Position numbers and translations under genes: made by a program
The notes under the pieces: model-generated
Told to the model about the DNA's origin: nothing
Database searches by the model: none
The model's input: only the letters and a program-made list of their open reading frames with translations
NCBI GenBank assembly: GCA_049969935.1
Contig: JBMFNX010000002.1
Span: 5,789 to 69,788, forward strand
Origin: Nitrososphaeria archaeon
Lineage (GTDB): Archaea; Thermoproteota; Nitrososphaeria; JACIWG01
Reading direction: 5' to 3'
DNA: 64,000 bases
Shown: positions 2,612 to 49,365 of the stretch, piece after piece
How the letters are laid out: each line of letters opens with the position of its first letter
Position numbering within the stretch: position 1 is the stretch's first letter

Positions 2612-2914
2612 ATGGTAAACTTTGTTCCTCCAGAATACGCTTGGATAATTCCAGTAATAGTGCCATTTATCATTGGATTGATTGTTGGAGTTATAATAAA
2701 AAGGGCATTAAAGCTTGTACTAGCCCTTATCATACTATTGATAGTTTTAGTGGCGGTGGGATATACTCAATTACCTACCTTTGAAGAGATAGCTAGGGCA
2801 GCATTAAAGTATCTTCCAATACTTTGGGCAGAGGCAAGCCCTTTGACAAACATCCTACCATATTCTTCGATAACATTTTTGCTTGGACTCGCTCTAGGAT
2901 TATGGAAAGGCTAG
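2612..2914 (+). CDS. small hydrophobic membrane protein (hypothetical)
   Basis: A 100-aa ORF made of two or three hydrophobic helices (IIPVIVPFIIGLIVGVII..., LIILLIVLVAVGY). Confidence 0.3.
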   Translation: MVNFVPPEYAWIIPVIVPFIIGLIVGVIIKRALKLVLALIILLIVLVAVGYTQLPTFEEIARAALKYLPILWAEASPLTNILPYSSITFLLGLALGLWKG

Positions 2915-3457
2915 ATGGGAATGAGCTTGGAGGCAATATGTAAGATAACTGGAGTATTGAAAAATATTCCGAGAACAGGATGGCTTCAAAAGGGTATACC
3001 ATTTTATGAGGCTGAATCGGTTGCAGAACATTCTTTCGAGGTAGCAGCAATCGTCCTAGCATTATTAAATAGTATTAGGATGAAGGTTGACGCAGAAAAA
3101 GCTTTAGCAATGGCGTTAATCCACGACTTAAGCGAATCAGTTATAGGAGATATGCCGAAAGCATTAACAGAAAAAATCGGCGAAAACTTCAAGCACGAAA
3201 TCGAAGGTGAAGCAGTTGAAAAGATTGTTGGCTCAGGAAAGCTTAGCGAAATTTTTGAAGAGTATTTGAGAGGAGAAAGTTTAGAATCCAAGATTGTTAA
3301 GTTCGCGGACAAGCTTTCCACATTCTATCAAGCTAAAAGCTACAGGAAAAGAGGATATGATGTGGACGAGATTATTGAAGGGACATTGGATGAAATTAAA
3401 ATTATGGTTAAACAGTTTAGAGGAGAGGGTATAGAAAAATTGTTTAACCTTCAATAA
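2915..3457 (+). CDS. HD-domain phosphohydrolase (YfbR-like 5'-deoxynucleotidase family)
   Basis: AEHSFEVAAIVLALL...LIHDLSESVIGDMP is the H...HD...D metal-binding signature of the HD superfamily. Confidence 0.6.
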   Translation: MGMSLEAICKITGVLKNIPRTGWLQKGIPFYEAESVAEHSFEVAAIVLALLNSIRMKVDAEKALAMALIHDLSESVIGDMPKALTEKIGENFKHEIEGEAVEKIVGSGKLSEIFEEYLRGESLESKIVKFADKLSTFYQAKSYRKRGYDVDEIIEGTLDEIKIMVKQFRGEGIEKLFNLQ

Positions 3458-19265: not shown

Positions 19266-19382
19266 TGGTAGCCCGGGAGAGATTCGAACTCTCGTCGGCG
19301 GGTTTCCTCAGCAAGTAGACTAGTGTATTTGTGTCTACATGCTTCCAAAGCCCGCTATGCTTGACCGCTACACCACCGGGCT
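19266..19382 (-). tRNA. tRNA-Gln (UUG anticodon) carrying a 41-nt intron at the canonical 37/38 site; CCA is encoded
   Basis: Reverse complement reads AGCCCGG..GCGGG-CUUUGG-[41-nt insert]-A-CCCGC..GAGAG-UUCGAAU-CUCUC-CCGGGCU-A-CCA. The insert (plus strand 19304..19344) forms the inner helices AGCA/UGCU and GUAGAC/GUCUAC. Confidence 0.75.
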
Positions 19383-41476: not shown

Positions 41477-44400
41477 CTATTCTTTGTCAATGAATTCCTC
41501 AGGTGATGGTGGAGATTCACTTAATCCTTTCCTCTTTCTAATCGATGCAATTAGTTGTGGTAGAAGATTTGATGGAACAGGACTCCATTCTTTAAAGTGT
41601 GTATTCCACATAGCTTTGCCAGCGGTCGCACCACGCATAGCTTCACTCAAATCAAATGTTTCTGCGGCAGGTATAACACCCTCTATGATTGTTAGGACAC
41701 CTTTTTGTTCTACATTAAGCATTTTCCCTCTCCTTGCAGAAATTACACCTGCTATGGCGCCAATCAAGTCAGCGTTCGCTTTAACTTCTATACCTAAAAC
41801 GGGTTCAAGTAATGTTGGATTAGCTAGAAGCATGGCACCTAGTATTGCCCGTCTAGATGCTGGCAAAAGTTGGGCATAAGTTCTATGAGCAGGATCTTCA
41901 TGGAATTCGGCATGATGTAGAACTACTTTAACGCCTCTACATGGTTCCTGTGCTAAGGGGCCATTTTCCATTACATCAAAGAAGCCGACTCTTATCGAAT
42001 CAATAGATTCCTGCATAAATTGGACACCTTTTGTTGCATCAACAAAAAGGTTACCTCTTGGATCAATAGCGACAACATTTCTAGCTTCATCTGCATCCCA
42101 TCCATGGTCCCTTAATATTTTTGCGATCGTCTTTCTATCAAGTTGATCATTAATAGTATTATTCCTTATTAATTCAATAACTTCAGCAGATAATGGTTCC
42201 ACTCGCATGAAAATACGATTATGTTTGTTTGGAGATTTTGCCATAACAGGCCCAGCTGAAGCCCTTATAGTTTCACGATAGTTAATTAATGGAGGAGTAG
42301 TTATTATTTCTAAACCAGTCTGCGTGATAAGCGTTGTCGCTATCTCTAAATGTAGCACACCCATACCTGACATTAGCATTTCCCCAGTCTCTTCATTTAT
42401 TTTGATCACAAGATTAGGATCTTCTATTGACAATTTTCTCAATGTTTCAATAAGTTTAGGTAAGTCTCTTGGATACTTTGGTTCTACAGCAATAGTCACT
42501 ACAGGTTCAGATACATATCTTATCTGTTCAAATGGCGTTATATCTTTTATTGAAGATACTGTTTCACCTGCCCTCGCAGCATCTAGTCCTAGCAGAGCAG
42601 GTATATTGCCTGCTGTAAGAACACCAACAATTTCTCTAAATGGACCCATGAACATGCTTACAGATTGCACACGAGCCTGTGTTTTTGCATTATGCAGGTA
42701 AAGTATGTCACCATCATGAACAGTTCCAGAAAAGAGGCGGCCTACAGCAACAACACCAGCTTGAGGATCAACAACTACGTTTGTCACCATCATTACAACA
42801 GGTCCCTTCTCATCACAGTTTAAGAGAGCTTGGCCTACTTCTGAATTCAGGTCACCCTTCCATATCTTTGGAATACGATATCTTTGCGCAACATGTGGGG
42901 GAGGATGATGCCTTATTACCATTGAAAGTATAGCATCATGTAATGGAAAGTTTTCGGCGAGAATCTTAATGTTACCTGCTTCATATGCCTTGTATATGTC
43001 ACTAAATCGGACACCCTTCTTTTGTGCAATCATAAAATTGAAGCCCCAACGGTCCTTTGCTGAACCAAATGCAACACTACTATCTTGTATACTAACTTTC
43101 CATTTTGACTTAAATTCTGGTTCAGCATATATGTCTATTAAATTATTAAATTCACTGACTATATTGGCAAGCCAAGCTTGCATCTTTTCTGGACTAAGCT
43201 TTAATTCTTTAATCAGCCTATCAATTTTATTAATATATAAGACTGGCCTAACTCTTTCCTCTAATGCTTGACGAGTAACAGTTTCAGTTTGCGTCATTAT
43301 ACCTTCAACAGCATCACATACAACTACAACACCGTCAATAGCACGCAAACTTCTTGTTACTCTACCAGTAAAATCAATGTGTCCTGGTGTATCTATTAAA
43401 TTTATTACATATGGAACATTCTCATATTCATAGTATAATGTAACGTTGGCTGCTTTAATTGTCATTTGCCTCTGCTGCTCTAGATCCATGTAGTCTAGGG
43501 CTAAAGCTTGGCCTGCAAGAGCAGGGCTAAGCATACCGCATGCAGCAAGAAGACTATCGCTCATAGTGGTATTATGCACTATTATACCGTTTGCAACAAA
43601 GGTGTGCGTGGTGGGTACAGTTAAGTCATAGACATCGAATTCACCCACAATTGGTTCAACATGAGAGACTTCAACAAATCTAACTTCGCCAGAAGCAAGT
43701 TTCCTCCAAGCATCCAGTATCTGCTCGATATTCTCTTTTTGAACACTAGATCCTCTGAGAAGATGCTTCCATATTGATAGGGCTTCCCGTCCAGTATCAG
43801 TAACACTAATTTTCCCATCCTTTATCTTTATGAGCTTGTCACTCTTGAGAGATGCCAGAAGACCGTTTAAGCGGTTTGAATCTAATTTGCATTCGCCTAT
43901 TAGTGTACTATATGTAACTTCATTACAGCATCTTTCAAGGATAGATGCCTTTATGGAAAGGTAGCTCAGTTCATTAAGTGCTTCTGAAAACACTTTAACA
44001 ATCTTACCTAATGCCACCCTATTTATTCGCTGTAAACCGTATTCATACTTACTGTAGTATGGGAAACCTCTTATGGTACGAGGAAGCCCTAGTGAGATCC
44101 GAAGGGCTGATAGCACCTTTGGTGAAATTGGGACTATGTCTGCAACTCGGTTTGATGCCGTTAGTCTGCTGAATCTGCGGAGAAGCTTATTTTTGTTCGG
44201 TAATGTAAAGCCTATTCTGCTTCTAAACGTCTTTAGATCCCTACCAGATATGCTTAAGACAAAATATCTACCCTTCTTATACTTTGTCGATACTATGCCA
44301 AAGCGAATTAAGAGTATGGATAGCTGGTCAATTAGCTCTTTAGATGCGGAGGTTATCGAGACAGATCTGCTCCGTTTGTTGACTGTGCCATCTGTGTCGA

Positions 44401-45539
44401 AGAGCCCTTTCAAGAATTCTGCAACAAGGTCATCACGCATAGCGGTCAGCAGATCTGACAGCACCAGCTTCTTAGACTTCTTGAAAGAATGGTAAGAGAA
44501 GAGATCCTCAAAGAACTTTATGAGCGTGAGGCCTCCGTAATGGTCAACTCTCACACTAGTTTTGCCTGAAACTACTCTGCTATCCACGTTGAAAGCCTTT
44601 AGCAACGCCTGCTTGAATCGGAACAAGATGCGCAAGTTCGTGTTGGTTAAGGACGCCCTAGTAGTGCCGTCACCATATAGCAGACCTAGAGCATACATCA
44701 TAGCCTTAAATTCATCTATTGTCTTAGGGAGGTGGATCCTCTTTGACTGTCTGCCAAATCTTTTTAGCGAAGAGCGGTATAAGAGGACATCAATGGCATC
44801 ATATAGCATAGACTTATTGAGCCCTATCAACTGAGCTATACATAAAAGGTCCTTGAGGCGGTACCTCCCTAGCCTAACTCCTTGTCGAAAGCTTTCGTAA
44901 TCTAGCTTGCTGCCAATGCTCCTCCACACTGCCTTAATGCCTCTCTGAGAAAGAGTGGTTGCAATAGATGAAGCAAATGGCTCCAGTAGATATATGAGAT
45001 AATAATCGCGCTCCGAAAGTCTTTCAATGATCCTCGCCTTAACTTGATCCAGCTCTAAACCAACGGATTTTAAGAGCGAGGGTACAGCAACATAGACACC
45101 TGGAGTTAGATCAGAAGCCCTTATGGCCTCTAACAATCCAAGCTCTGACAAAGTGTAAAATGGATGTTCGGGAGTAGTTGAAACCTCAAAACCGTTTCTT
45201 AAACTGACTCGAATCAACTTGTTACTCTTAAGCTTCCAGACGTAAACCGCTTTCATATCTTTAATATTAAGCAAAGAGGGGTCCATAGAATCTACAAAAA
45301 CATCCTTCAAGGTGGCTCTCTTATCAAACCGCCCATAGCGCTCGTAAAGCACCTTAATCGGAAGAATCTCACCAGTAGATAATGTTACATAAGAATCTTC
45401 GCTCACACACTTACCATGATCTACATGGGCAACAACACCCAGATTATTCGGGTTTAGAGATTTTTCTCTAAACCTTTCGAATCTGGTCCTTGTTGCCTAT
45501 GATTTTTAATGCTTCTGCGGTAGTTTTATACCTTGGCAT
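41477..45539 (-). CDS. fusA: translation elongation factor aEF-2, interrupted by a 31-nt BHB intron (45445..45475) and a 613-aa intein (43571..45409); the mature protein is about 730 aa
   Basis: Exon 1 (45476..45539) encodes MPRYKTTAEALKIIGNKDQIR, then frame A hits UAG. Removing 31 nt gives ...[16 protein letters not shown][intein][27 protein letters not shown]...NLIDTPGHIDF..., which aligns with Sulfolobus aEF-2 (MPRYKT...[17 protein letters not shown]...). Confidence 0.85.
43571..45409 (-). mobile_element. intein with LAGLIDADG homing-endonuclease domain inserted in the aEF-2 P-loop
   Basis: Host junctions are AHVDHGK|C at the start and HN|[8 protein letters not shown] at the end. The Hint N-terminus is CVSEDSYVTLSTGE, the LAGLIDADG blocks are MMYALGLLYGDGTT and VAEFLKGLFDTDGTV, and the C-terminus is FVANGIIVHN+T. 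Confidence 0.85.
45445..45475 (-). other. predicted bulge-helix-bulge (hBHBh') pre-mRNA intron in aEF-2
   Basis: mRNA: CCAGA-UUCG-[AA|A]-GGUUUAGAGA-AAAA-UCUCUAAACC-CGAA-[UA|A]-UCUGG. This is a 5-bp outer helix, a 4-bp central helix, two 3-nt bulges on opposite strands, a 10-bp inner helix and a 4-nt loop. Cleavage after the second bulge nucleotide on each strand excises exactly 31 nt and restores the frame. Confidence 0.7.
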
Positions 45540-45627
45540 AGTAAACCCCACTAAACCACTAGAGAAACCCTTTTAAAAGATTTTGGAGAAAGAGATTGTA
45601 ACCACATTATATTATTTAAATAAAGTT

Positions 45628-46230
45628 TTATTCAATATTAGCATGCCTTTCCCTCATATCCAATTCACTTACATGAAATTCTGATATTAGGGTAGCAATT
45701 ATAGAATCTAACAAAAATAGGGCACTGTCTTCAAAAAGTGTGCCTAATGGAGCAAGTGGTTCATGAAGACCTAAAATTTGCCGAGCAAAATAGTCTCTTG
45801 GTGAGATCTCAATTCGCCCTTTTAAAAGCACTATATGATTAGAGAGTTGACCCAATGGAGACTCAGGATATGAAGTTATAGACACAATTTTTGCACCAAC
45901 TTGCTTAGCTGCTTCAGCTGCGGTAACTATAAGTTTTGTTGACCCAGAACCAGAAATTGCAATAACTAGATCTTCTTTAGAAATTGATGGCACAATAGTG
46001 TCACCTAAAACGTAAGCATTAAAGCCTAAATGGAGAAGACGCATTGCAAAAGCACGGCCAACCAGACCGCTTCTCCCAGCACCCATTATCAATATCTTAC
46101 TACTCTTATGAGACTTTAGCATTTCAACAAAGGTTCTTAATTCTTCTTCATTAACCTGTAGTAAATTCTCTTTTACCAATTCCGACAAAAGTATAGCCCT
46201 CTCTTTCACACTTTGGATACTGCTGCTCAT
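45628..46230 (-). CDS. SIS-domain sugar-phosphate isomerase (6-phospho-3-hexuloisomerase-like)
   Basis: A 200-aa single-SIS-domain ORF with [14 protein letters not shown]...AISGSGST. Confidence 0.55.
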
Positions 46231-46261
46231 ATTTTTGGGTTAGAAATATGCAAATAAAAAG

Positions 46262-46930
46262 TTATTTACTTAATTTTTCGAACATGTTTTCATACATTTT
46301 CACATTAGTATCTATAAGGTCCCTTATCCTTCGAGCACGCTTTAGACCAATTCCAGGAACCTTAGACAGTTCCTCCACAGAGGCGAGAAAAACATTCTTT
46401 GGAGAGCCAAAATGATTTAGTAAATTTAAAGCTAACTTTGGGCCAACACTTGGAAGTGATGAGATTAAATAGATTTGCTGATCGAAGAAGCCTTTTTTCT
46501 TAGCATGTTTAATAAGGTAGCCTCTTCCTTTTTTAGTAGAAGCATTTACTAGACAGTATAAGAATAAGGCTGTCTCCTTTTCCGAAAGCACATTAACTAG
46601 CTTTATCTTATAATTTATAAGAAGGGAGGCGATTGCACAGTATACAGCTTTAGGATTACGTAAATATGCTTCTACTTCATTGAAATTACCTTCAACTATA
46701 ATGAAGGCATTGGGATAGGAGGAAGATAATTGTTCAATTTGATTAAATAAACGGCCATCAAATAATGAGGCTATAAAATCTTTCATTGATTTCCTTTCAA
46801 CCGCAGTCTCAGGGTTAATTATATAGTCACCGACTTCTAAAAGTTTAAAAACAAAATTGATATTCATCGATTTTAGTAGATCTGGTATACTAGATTTTGA
46901 TTCCCTATGGTCTACAATTATGTAACCCAT
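46262..46930 (-). CDS. xpf: XPF/ERCC4-type structure-specific nuclease (short archaeal form, nuclease plus HhH2)
   Basis: ERCC4 core IVDHRE...GDYII...VERKSMKDF...GRLFNQ and a C-terminal HhH2 (LPSVGPKLALNLLNHFGS...VPGIGLKRARRI). Confidence 0.7.
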   Translation of the reverse strand: MGYIIVDHRESKSSIPDLLKSMNINFVFKLLEVGDYIINPETAVERKSMKDFIASLFDGRLFNQIEQLSSSYPNAFIIVEGNFNEVEAYLRNPKAVYCAIASLLINYKIKLVNVLSEKETALFLYCLVNASTKKGRGYLIKHAKKKGFFDQQIYLISSLPSVGPKLALNLLNHFGSPKNVFLASVEELSKVPGIGLKRARRIRDLIDTNVKMYENMFEKLSK

Positions 46931-46942
46931 ATCACATCCACT

Positions 46943-47677
46943 TTAAACTCTAAAATAATAGATGAGAAGTATAAATAAGATTATAAATGATAGACATGAG
47001 AGTAGTGCAAAATAGTCTCGTCGCCTAAAACTTAATCTGTAATATGATGTTCTTTTTTTAGAAAAACCATAAGCTCTAGACTCCATTGCTTCAGCTAATT
47101 CCTCACTTCTTATAATCGATTGAACAATTAATGGTACCAATACTGGAATATAATTACGGATCCGCTTAAATAAATTACCCTTTTCTATTTCAAGACCTCT
47201 AGAACGTTGAGAGTCTATTATTTGTAGCGCATCCAATAATATTACTGGTACAAAACGTACTGCTGTAACGAAGGCAAATATTAAATCGTAAGGTAAGTGT
47301 AGAGAGCGCATAACAAGGTCAAGCTCATCAGGAGAAGACGTTAAGAAGAAGATAGAGGAGGATGAAATTATTGCAATAAAACGTAATGAGATAATTATGG
47401 AGAAAATAAGTTCGTATCCTACTAGCAAGTTTATTATAAAGATCATGGCCACAAATGAGAGAGAGAATGTTATAGTTTTTATCATCCTCCTAAACACCTT
47501 AGAAACAACTCCTAAAATGAAGATAATCGATAACAGTATAGCGAATTCAAAAATCGTGTTACTGAAGAGTGAAAGGATAAAAAGTGATAGTGAAATAGTC
47601 AATTTAACTCTTGGGTCAAGAGAGTGAACGAAACTGTCCTGACGTCTGTATATTAAGCCTTCTGCTAACCAAAACAT
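46943..47677 (-). CDS. ecfT: ECF transporter transmembrane T component (EcfT/CbiQ)
   Basis: A 244-aa polytopic membrane protein lying directly downstream of two ECF-type ABC ATPases. Confidence 0.65.
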   Translation of the reverse strand: MFWLAEGLIYRRQDSFVHSLDPRVKLTISLSLFILSLFSNTIFEFAILLSIIFILGVVSKVFRRMIKTITFSLSFVAMIFIINLLVGYELIFSIIISLRFIAIISSSSIFFLTSSPDELDLVMRSLHLPYDLIFAFVTAVRFVPVILLDALQIIDSQRSRGLEIEKGNLFKRIRNYIPVLVPLIVQSIIRSEELAEAMESRAYGFSKKRTSYYRLSFRRRDYFALLSCLSFIILFILLIYYFRV

Positions 47678-47683
47678 TCTATC

Positions 47684-48499
47684 TCAGCCTTTAAATAGCT
47701 TTAAAATCATTGCACGTGCTTCAAGAAGATCAATAGGAGGTTTATCAATTAATGGAAAAAGTTCTTCATAAAGTTCAATAAGTTGAGGTTTTGTAATACC
47801 ACATTCTTCTAGTGCTTCTGAATCACTGAAAATTCTTCTACAATCACCGTCTCTAACGATCATCCCGTTAGAGATTAATATTATTCTAGGCTGCAGAAGC
47901 CAAATAAATTCAACATCATGGGACACGATTATAACTGTCTTGTTCTGGGTTGCAAGCATTTTAATAATTTCCCTAAGCTTTTCCTTTTGGAGAAAATCTT
48001 GCCCAACTGTAGGTTCATCAAGTATAATAAAGTCCGGATCCCATGCAAGAACAGAGGCTAAACATAATCTCTTTTTTTCACCACCACTCAACAATAGGGG
48101 GGAGACATCTTTGTATTGAATTAGGTTAAAGAATTCTAAAGCCCATTTAACTCTTTTCTTTGCAACCTCTTCATCAAATCCAAAATTTTTTAAGGCGAAA
48201 GCAACTTCATTCCATACAGTATCGGAGAAAAGTTGGTGGCCAGGGTTTTGAAAAACGAGTCCAACCCTCTTTGAAAAATAGGCTACTGATTCTTCGCGCG
48301 TGTCCTTACCGAATACCTTAACTGAACCCTTTGTTGGTTTAAGTAATCCGTTAAAATGTTTTATAAGTGTAGTTTTACCAGAACCATTTCCACCCATTAT
48401 ACCCACTATTTCTCCAAGTTTAATCTTTAAATTAACATTTTTTAGAATAAAATCCTTTGCTAAAGGATATTTAAAATATAATGAGTCTACTTCAATCAA
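47684..48499 (-). CDS. ecfA2: ECF transporter ATPase EcfA2
   Basis: Walker A GGNGSGKTT, signature LSGGEKKR and Walker B ILDEP. Confidence 0.8.
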   Translation of the reverse strand: MIEVDSLYFKYPLAKDFILKNVNLKIKLGEIVGIMGGNGSGKTTLIKHFNGLLKPTKGSVKVFGKDTREESVAYFSKRVGLVFQNPGHQLFSDTVWNEVAFALKNFGFDEEVAKKRVKWALEFFNLIQYKDVSPLLLSGGEKKRLCLASVLAWDPDFIILDEPTVGQDFLQKEKLREIIKMLATQNKTVIIVSHDVEFIWLLQPRIILISNGMIVRDGDCRRIFSDSEALEECGITKPQLIELYEELFPLIDKPPIDLLEARAMILKLFKG

Positions 48500-49365
48500 G
48501 TTTTTGTCAACCTCATTTTCAGTTGTCTTGCAAAATCTTTAACATTTAAACAAAATTCATTGAAAATTAGGCCATCTTCCCTTAAATAGTTTTGCAATCC
48601 TATAATTGGGGGAACGCTAACACCATAGAGATTTAGATTTTTACTTCTTATAACCTCCTTTAATGGCCCATCAAAGACAATTTCACCCCTGTCTAAAACA
48701 ACCATCTTATTTGCTGCATCTGTTAAAAGGTCTATTCTATGTTCAACTACAATAATTGTTAATCCAAACCTTTTATTTAGTTCCTTTAACAATAGTATGA
48801 ATTCTAGAGCAGTCCGAGGGTCAAGTAAAGAAGTTGGTTCATCTAAAATCAAAATTTTTGGTTTCATCGCAAGCACTCCAGCTATTGCAACCCTCTGTTT
48901 TTGGCCATCAGATAATTCATATGGAGGCCTATATCTCAGATGTTCTATATTTAAGGCCTTTAAAACCCATTTAAGCCTATTATCTATTTCTTCCATTTCA
49001 AGCCCAATATTTTCTAGACCAAAAACAATATCTTTTTCTACAGAAAACATGAAAATCTGATTTTCAGGATTTTGGAAAACGAAACCTACTTTAGTTGCTA
49101 ATTCACTTACACTTTTATTCTTAACTGATTCGCCATCAACAATTACATCACCTAAATAAGTGCCAGTATAGAGATGGGGGATTAATCCATTAATGCATCT
49201 TAAAAGTGTTGATTTCCCACAACCACTTGGGCCGACTAAAAGAACAAAATCGCCTTCTTTAATTGTAAGATTTATATTTTTTAGAATAAACGTGTTAGAT
49301 CCAGAGTAGGAAAAACTTAGGTTAATGAACCTTATTATATCTGTCAACGTTTCCATATGCGACAA
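48496..49365 (-). CDS. ecfA1: ECF transporter ATPase EcfA1
   Basis: Walker A GPSGCGKST, signature LSDGQKQR and Walker B ILDEPTS. Confidence 0.8.
   Translation of the reverse strand: MSHMETLTDIIRFINLSFSYSGSNTFILKNINLTIKEGDFVLLVGPSGCGKSTLLRCINGLIPHLYTGTYLGDVIVDGESVKNKSVSELATKVGFVFQNPENQIFMFSVEKDIVFGLENIGLEMEEIDNRLKWVLKALNIEHLRYRPPYELSDGQKQRVAIAGVLAMKPKILILDEPTSLLDPRTALEFILLLKELNKRFGLTIIVVEHRIDLLTDAANKMVVLDRGEIVFDGPLKEVIRSKNLNLYGVSVPPIIGLQNYLREDGLIFNEFCLNVKDFARQLKMRLTKT

Follow-up and report, generated by a model that had tools for sequence, protein, structure and literature searches.

A LAGLIDADG intein in the P-loop of archaeal elongation factor 2 and a short upstream bulge-helix-bulge intron in the same gene of a Nitrososphaeria archaeon

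An intein in the P-loop of a translational GTPase is known from aIF5B/IF-2 (PRK14845; 'aIF2' in PMC4760082), where the element lies after the Walker-A lysine in the arrangement GHVDHGK^C...HN^T/S (carets mark splice junctions) and carries a LAGLIDADG endonuclease. At the RNA level, the cbf5 pre-mRNA of Crenarchaeota contains a bulge-helix-bulge (BHB) intron in its coding region (Watanabe 2002; Yokobori 2009, PMC2738675), which as of 2020 was the only archaeal coding-region BHB intron described (PMC7714728). We analyzed a 64,000-nt stretch of DNA from a Nitrososphaeria archaeon (contig JBMFNX010000002.1, positions 5,789 to 69,788; hereafter the window), in which the gene for archaeal elongation factor 2 (aEF-2, or EF-2) is interrupted twice, by a large in-frame insertion in the P-loop and by a 31-nt element shortly upstream of it. 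We hold with high confidence that the former is a class-1 intein with a LAGLIDADG endonuclease, probably gained fairly recently by horizontal transfer, that the latter is an older BHB intron, and that RNA splicing followed by protein splicing would be needed to produce EF-2.

The EF-2 insertion occupies the same position in its host as the aIF5B/IF-2 intein does in a paralogous GTPase, but the host gene is another, the two are only about 28-30% identical and they fall into separate clades. Its fold is that of the TliVMA and PhoVMA inteins (7qss, 7qst), PI-TkoII (2cw7) and PI-PfuI (1dq3), in which the Hint domain is likewise split by a two-motif LAGLIDADG endonuclease with extra DNA-binding modules. 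These solved inteins, however, reside in V-ATPase A, DNA polymerase and ribonucleotide reductase (RNR), are 12-19% identical to the insertion over the structural alignment, and are shorter than the intein of the window, which additionally has a helical region and a module of the winged-helix type. Closer counterparts are EF-2 P-loop inteins present in public data (P0117, Conexivisphaerales archaeon, 1256 aa; P0069, JGI, 1270 aa; L008, Nitrososphaeria QQ_bin.110111; and many Bathyarchaeota), which share site, block residues, architecture and clade. They are at most 46% identical to the intein of the window, the upstream intron is absent from most of the genes that host them, and in some the endonuclease is degenerate or the winged-helix insert is missing. 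The EF-2 intron, like that of cbf5, is a coding-region BHB element that is presumably cut by the tRNA-splicing endonuclease and is patchy among related lineages, but it lies in another gene and in other lineages (Nitrososphaeria, Bathyarchaeia), is very short (16-31 nt) and shares its gene with an intein. Our literature search found no description of an EF-2 intein, and searches for a coding-region BHB intron in EF-2 found nothing newer than 2020; the survey of Novikova et al. 2015 lists aIF2 but not EF-2, with few inteins in core translation proteins (PMC4760082).

The EF-2 gene runs on the minus strand from an ATG at 45539 to a stop codon at 41477 in the reverse-complement translation (whole gene with both elements, 41477..45539; TIGR00490 aEF-2, 4.8e-254). 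The insertion lies at 43571..45409 (minus strand) and encodes 613 residues (C1 to N613) in frame between K33 and T34, directly after the Walker-A lysine K33 of the P-loop. It starts with CVSEDSYVTLSTGE and ends with FVANGIIVHN, and TTMSDSLL follows directly (AHVDHGK^C...HN^TT). The initial annotation, which proposed a LAGLIDADG intein at this site, gave exactly these coordinates, length and end strings; its unspliced length of 1340 aa was slightly off, as the full precursor is computed to be 1343 aa. In-silico removal of both elements gives a 730-aa EF-2, which aligned end to end (100% of the length) with 730-aa intein-free Nitrososphaeria EF-2 proteins at 73-79% identity. The intein-excised protein was 85-95% identical to its closest relatives, whose database entries are shortened at the N-terminus, and aligned without gaps, with 34 amino-acid differences, to the reconstructed spliced coding sequence of the closest of them. 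Excision therefore leaves an uninterrupted conserved EF-2, as the alignment of the extein junction with intein-free sequences suggested by the initial annotation was meant to ascertain.

By its sequence, the insertion is a canonical class-1 intein with a nested two-motif LAGLIDADG homing endonuclease. The class-1 splicing residues are complete: Cys1, which directly follows K33, T79-P-E-H82, His612-Asn613 and Thr+1. The N-terminal Hint half (residues 1-115; 45065..45409, minus strand, as are all intein features below; TIGR01445 intein_Nterm, 1e-12) contains Cys1 in block A and T79-x-x-H82 in block B (TTPEHPFY), and the C-terminal half (residues 572-613; 43571..43696; TIGR01443 intein_Cterm, 7.5e-9) contains block F, FDVYDLTVPTTHTFVANG, and block G, IIVHN, ahead of Thr+1. 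The Hint and LAGLIDADG profile searches proposed in the initial annotation gave matches to Intein_splicing (PF14890, 5.4e-21) and LAGLIDADG_3 (PF14528, 7.8e-23, residues 328-400). Model and profile matches place the endonuclease core at about residues 222-418, and the two LAGLIDADG strings quoted previously are found within it, motif 1 at residues 237-250 (MMYALGLLYGDGTT; GLLYGD247G; 44660..44701) and motif 2 at residues 329-343 (VAEFLKGLFDTDGTV; GLFDTD340G; 44381..44425), with both catalytic aspartates, D247 and D340, kept. Between the N-terminal Hint half and the endonuclease is a helical accessory region (residues 116-215; 44765..45064) with a predicted local confidence (pLDDT) of about 80-89 in the AlphaFold2 (AF2) model; this stretch gave no Pfam match and was assigned to no family, and it may contact DNA. 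A winged-helix-like domain (residues 464-551; 43757..44020) precedes the C-terminal splicing segment and consists of helices and a beta-hairpin in the model; Pfam HTH_45 (1.4e-4) and NCBIfam Sso10a_fam (1.8e-6) matched residues 484-549, both weakly and below the curated cut-offs.

The AF2 model of the intein (pLDDT 69.9, pTM 0.69) has beta strands in the N-terminal Hint half and places, with moderate confidence, an alpha-beta-beta-alpha-beta-beta-alpha endonuclease within the Hint domain. Foldseek against the PDB ranked the TliVMA intein (7e-15), PI-TkoII, PI-PfuI, PhoVMA and PI-SceI at the top, followed by I-DmoI for the endonuclease core and then by mini-inteins for the Hint domain. With phmmer, the PDB sequences matched were the VMA, RadA, CDC21 and PI-PfuI inteins, and the best full-length NCBIfam match was to PRK14845, an aIF-2 model that includes an intein, over its intein portion (197 bits). 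The profiles, the PDB matches and the AF2/Foldseek comparison all bear out the proposal of a LAGLIDADG intein in the aEF-2 P-loop. Protein splicing would be expected from the fact that the P-loop it splits is essential. The junction peptide suggested in the initial annotation for proteomic detection contains K33, at which trypsin would cut the junction itself.

A profile built from three EF-2 inteins was run against a single genome for each GTDB species and recovered 14 genome loci with full-length homologues at the identical site, AHVDHGK^C...HN^TT. The hosts are Nitrososphaeria (L008, L019, L020), a Geothermarchaeota metagenome-assembled genome (MAG; L010), Ca. Scotarchaeum (L014) and Bathyarchaeia/Bathyarchaeota (L009, L011-L013, L015-L018, L027). 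A scan of metagenomes added at least about 45 further EF-2 intein loci, and the database proteins P0069 and P0117 carry an intein at the same EF-2 position; two intein-containing database proteins are labelled plainly "elongation factor EF-2" and "elongation factor 2" by their sources. At least 35 distinct EF-2 intein sequences were extracted. No variation was seen at C1, T79, H82 or the terminal HN (35/35), and the catalytic Asp pair is kept in most but gone in six (L020, L074, L077, L078, L080, L081); inteins of approximately 540 aa (539 aa) from soil Bathyarchaeota lack the winged-helix module. The closest intein among the matches listed is that of L008 (46% identity), whose EF-2 C-extein is 75.5% identical to that of the window. 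By neighbour joining, the EF-2 inteins group as one clade, which neighbours but is distinct from the aIF5B and SRP/FtsY P-loop inteins, and the intein of the window pairs with L008. Judged from these matches, the EF-2 P-loop intein allele is widespread in TACK-group archaea and present in dozens of public MAGs and metagenome contigs, and is undescribed in the literature searched.

Other searches were less informative on distribution. Word-indexed protein searches with the intein alone and with the three-intein profile returned weak matches to unrelated inteins and missed the EF-2 inteins, which reflects a limit of the tool and not absence. An exhaustive phmmer search of 1.84 billion representatives gave 4233 intein relatives (best 210 bits) and was uninformative on EF-2, since intein-bearing EF-2 proteins are probably represented there by other cluster members. 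The viral contigs searched contained no close relatives of the intein, so no vector can be suggested. Homologous endonuclease-bearing inteins were also observed after the Walker-A lysine of other proteins (L021-L026, L029, L031-L033, L085-L093), namely aIF5B/IF-2 (GHVDHGK^C...HN^TS), SRP54/FtsY-type GTPases and HerA-like ATPases, with one in the IF-2 of a Patescibacteria bacterium (L024); this suggests a superfamily of inteins that target P-loops and have passed from one paralogue, and from one domain of life, to another. At two EF-2 intein loci (L082, GG747282.1, 1501-3263; L076, near 3100) many stops or a frameshift occur near the C-terminal splicing block, and these inteins are either decaying in an essential gene or affected by errors of older assemblies.

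Upstream of the intein, the frame that begins at the ATG (MPRYKTTAEALKIIGNKDQIR) is closed by a TAG once 23 codons have been read and a different frame encodes the P-loop, such that the unspliced mRNA would yield only a 23-aa peptide. The responsible element is 31 nt long (45445..45475, minus strand), contains the in-frame TAG and splits the Asn22 codon after its first base. Exon 1 (45476..45539, minus strand; 64 nt) encodes M1-R21 and the first base of the Asn22 codon and is homologous to the N-terminus MPR(Y/F)KTT...QIR of intron-free EF-2, and the part of exon 2 before the intein (45410..45444, minus strand; 35 nt) encodes the rest of Asn22 through K33, including AHVDHGK. On comparative support we accept the interruption as a BHB intron, and it looks like the second coding-region BHB intron family known in archaea, after that of cbf5. 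The core of the structure lies at 45439..45486 (minus strand) and reads CCAGA-TTCG-AAA-(hairpin)-CGAA-TAA-TCTGG, with an outer helix (CCAGA/TCTGG), a central 4-bp helix (TTCG/CGAA), 3-nt bulges (AAA and TAA) and an inner hairpin (GGTTTAGAGA/TCTCTAAACC). This agrees with the strict hBHBh' definition of two 3-nt bulges on opposite strands, a 4-bp helix between them and flanking helices of at least 2 bp (PMC3978253, PMC6379350).

The same structure recurs in relatives, which upholds the mRNA intron claimed in the initial annotation, and the support from comparison is unusually clean. Fourteen intron alleles from two archaeal classes (Nitrososphaeria and Bathyarchaeia) were collected, with lengths of 16, 26, 28, 29, 30 and 31 nt, and the strict hBHBh' form could be drawn in 14/14. 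Among 11 distinct alleles, 90.9% of the cells were standard pairs, compared to 20-55% when the partners were slid by 1-3 columns, counts that come from an alignment we set in structural register and that favour the structure to that extent. Five pairs were altered on both sides, and the central helix was 100% paired, with UA to CG swaps in four Bathyarchaeia alleles. The 29-nt allele of L005 and the Bathyarchaeia alleles fixed the register; an alternative BHB register giving a 33-nt intron was tried and rejected as out of frame. One allele (L130) has another Arg codon and a central helix, CAGG/CCTG, that is complementary but shifted by one base. Cleavage by the archaeal splicing endonuclease falls between the second and third nucleotides of the bulge. 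When all four symmetric cut positions were tried, only cleavage after bulge nucleotide 2 gave QIRN in 14/14 alleles. Under this standard rule the first codon of the intein lies 35 nt past the 3' splice site. The spacing of 36 nt given initially is thus one nucleotide too long by the standard cut, but it falls within the 34-36 nt that runs of A at both junctions make indistinguishable from this sequence alone.

Several further features of the intron alleles were observed. The coding sequences for GNKDQ in exon 1 and LGVVA in exon 2 (45430-45497, minus strand) are complementary at 14/16 positions in the window, which lengthens the outer helix of the BHB. This exon-exon helix, which was compared in L001, L005, L127, L129, L131 and L132, also shows a paired change between alleles, AAC to AAT with GTT to ATT. 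The complementarity is 11-14/16 in eight Nitrososphaeria alleles of the TTCG/CGAA type; L130 reaches 7/16 and the four intron alleles of Bathyarchaeia 6-8/16, and 27 alleles that lack the intron average 6.6, with a maximum of 10. A stop (TAG or TAA) is present in the exon-1 frame in 14/14 introns, mostly within the first 9-10 nt and at 17 nt in L132, so that unspliced mRNA would end translation after about 23-26 codons and give no frameshifted protein. The allele of a Nitrosocaldaceae MAG (L127, GCA_038847215.1; called EF-2 starts at 401) has a 16-nt intron, A-GGTTTAACC-CGAATA, whose inner 'hairpin' has 2-3 base pairs at most; if it is spliced, few BHB introns would be shorter. An intein-bearing Bathyarchaeota EF-2 (L015, MNGO01000059.1, ~2860-3000) lacks about 10-20 N-terminal codons of its relatives, and a promoter-like region abuts ...RRYKQIRN. 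A second insertion or intron was considered here and rejected in favor of a shortened or diverged 5' end; the N-terminus may be shortened here, or the locus rearranged. The window also contains, at 19269-19382 (minus strand), a tRNA of 114 nt, probably tRNA-Gln(TTG), in which the anticodon is followed by an intron of about 40 nt (Rfam 50 bits, missed by ARAGORN); an intron-containing tRNA implies that BHB splicing machinery is in use in this genome.

With regard to the history of the intein, the EF-2 proteins of L001-L004 (95% identical to the window), L005-L007 (88%) and L132 (85%) have an uninterrupted P-loop and no intein; in L001 the intein-free site reads GCCCATGTTGATCATGGGAAA^ACTACTATGAGTGATAGTC. 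The GC content at third codon positions (GC3) is 0.426 in the intein, compared to 0.254 in the C-extein and 0.287 +/- 0.042 in 31 long open reading frames of the window, which puts the intein about 3 SD above the host genes. Intein-free nearest relatives and a foreign codon composition together point to a fairly recent gain, and the intein was probably acquired horizontally in this lineage. The released endonuclease, as predicted from its sequence, probably still cuts intein-free EF-2 alleles and homes. A number of points weigh against this account. We infer endonuclease activity from the retained catalytic residues, in a family whose endonuclease domain decays in related EF-2 inteins, and both splicing steps are likewise read from the DNA; the AF2 model was built from an alignment of three sequences and is of low confidence at 28-53 and 419-470; precise loss of the intein in several relatives is a formal alternative to gain here; and no co-conversion signal was seen beside the insertion between the window and L001, a comparison that has little power at 84% nucleotide identity (4-6 differences per 60 nt near the insertion, compared to about 9.5 per 60 nt gene-wide). 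If the intein were real but its endonuclease dead, it would be a fixed, vertically inherited and immobile passenger that only splices. The loss of the catalytic Asp in 6/35 EF-2 inteins, the missing co-conversion tract and the distance to the closest sampled intein would fit such a passenger, but both LAGLIDADG motifs and both aspartates are intact in a confidently modelled core, and a recent arrival accords better than long residence with the GC3 of the intein and its absence from every sampled close relative. We consider a dead endonuclease unlikely, while giving it real weight. It is extremely improbable, in our judgment, that a second, intact EF-2 does the work and that the present gene is a pseudogene, disrupted by the insertion, or a chimeric assembly with a foreign EF-2 intein segment. 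The base composition of the intein is unlike that of its flanks and the 64 kb in view leave room for a second EF-2 copy elsewhere in the genome, but the 1839 nt of the intein contain no stop or frameshift, every catalytic residue for splicing is intact, and relatives with conserved synteny have an extein of 95% identity. Moreover, the intron and the following 35 nt match L001, which would confine chimeric joins to a few tens of bases on each side, and no near-identical donor was found among the matches listed from GTDB species genomes, metagenomes, the 1.84 billion representatives and viral contigs.

The upstream interruption could in turn stem from a sequencing error or be overcome by programmed frameshifting or translational bypass, which would leave the intein as the one intervening element. 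The support for an intron is comparative, CGAA stands on both sides of the hairpin in the window in the manner of take-off and landing sites, and the minimum free energy (MFE) fold of the window sequence (-21.0 kcal/mol) is not the BHB form (-20.5 kcal/mol, within 0.5 kcal/mol of the MFE), a point that counts against our reading of the intron. A local sequencing error is ruled out by the presence of the interruption, at variable length, in relatives without the intein that were assembled independently (NCBI, JGI, ENA and Logan). Frameshifting could not rescue two alleles whose lengths are multiples of 3 and which contain an in-frame stop. Bypass between matched codons is contradicted by L130, where CAGG/CCTG is complementary and not repeated, and by our reading of the sequence, in which landing on the downstream CGA would be out of frame. 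The BHB pairing with its compensatory changes, and the restoration of Asn22 in every allele by the standard cut only, argue for the BHB intron, and these other explanations of the interruption appear to us highly improbable.

Every combination of the two elements was found. The intron alone was found at L001-L007 and L127-L132, the intein alone at L008, L010-L014, L016-L020 and L047, in the soil Bathyarchaeota group and in P0069 and P0117, and neither in the 730-aa EF-2 proteins. Both are present in the window and in a Bathyarchaeia group (L009/L048, L049, L050/L051, L084), such that the initial annotation was right to place an RNA-level and a protein-level element within the first ~100 coding nucleotides of a single gene, an arrangement that is not confined to this genome. 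The intron of the window is identical to that of the intein-free L001 except for the hairpin loop, and the 35 nt after it differ at three synonymous positions. The sharing of the intron with an intein-free relative indicates that the intron is older and that the intein entered an intron-carrying allele.

We propose the following order of events in expression. Transcription would start from a TATA-like box, TTTTAAAA (45571..45578, minus strand; 32 nt upstream of the ATG), a putative promoter that was read from the sequence and is also present in L001 and L005. The tRNA-splicing endonuclease would excise the 31-nt intron and an RNA ligase would join the exons, giving the RNA junction ...CAGATTCGAA^ATCTGGGTG (CGAA^ATCTGG) and letting translation pass the TAG. 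Translation would then produce the 1343-aa precursor with a split P-loop, which would be unable to bind GTP, so that the Hint domain must excise itself. Protein splicing would proceed by an N-S acyl shift at Cys1, transesterification to Thr+1, cyclisation of Asn613 and a final acyl shift, yielding the 730-aa EF-2, of which the C-extein (41477..43570, minus strand) encodes T34-E730 and the stop codon, and a free 69-kDa endonuclease that possibly homes into intein-free EF-2 alleles.

The locus itself is native. The genes upstream of EF-2 (45628-49365, minus strand) encode a SIS-domain protein, an ERCC4/Hef-like nuclease, CbiQ and two ABC ATPases, and the order ABC ATPase, CbiQ, ERCC4 nuclease, SIS protein, EF-2 is common to the window and L001-L007, which confirms that EF-2 does not lie on a mobile island.

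EF-2, a core factor of translation, is essential and strongly expressed, and it often serves as a phylogenetic marker. Among the 120 closest EF-2 database proteins (P0006-P0125), 44 are N-terminally truncated or mis-started (685-727 aa), some of them beginning in the wrong frame of the intron, e.g. MKTKFERFNPNNFGV, and the unrecognised intron was the cause in all nine length classes for which the DNA was read (loci L001-L007, L127-L132). Both elements therefore need to be removed before EF-2 is aligned as a marker.

We also entertained a more far-reaching idea, that EF-2 production is deliberately gated by two successive splicing steps and that the intron is a maintained regulatory device of Nitrososphaeria and Bathyarchaeia and not a neutral parasite. 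HAC1/XBP1 splicing in eukaryotes offers an analogy for such gated output. If this were true, the BHB intron, which has an in-frame stop and a co-evolved exon-exon helix, would make the amount of EF-2 depend on how active the tRNA-splicing endonuclease and ligase are, and the P-loop intein would add a condition-dependent switch at the protein level. We regard the idea as speculative and rather improbable. The intein alone would be of modest interest, and the adjoining BHB intron is the more surprising part, as coding-region BHB introns would then be known from a core translation factor and from two additional classes of archaea. The EF-2 locus provides a new P-loop intein and its endonuclease, and it is a small natural system in which to examine in what order RNA-level and protein-level splicing take place and how they interact.

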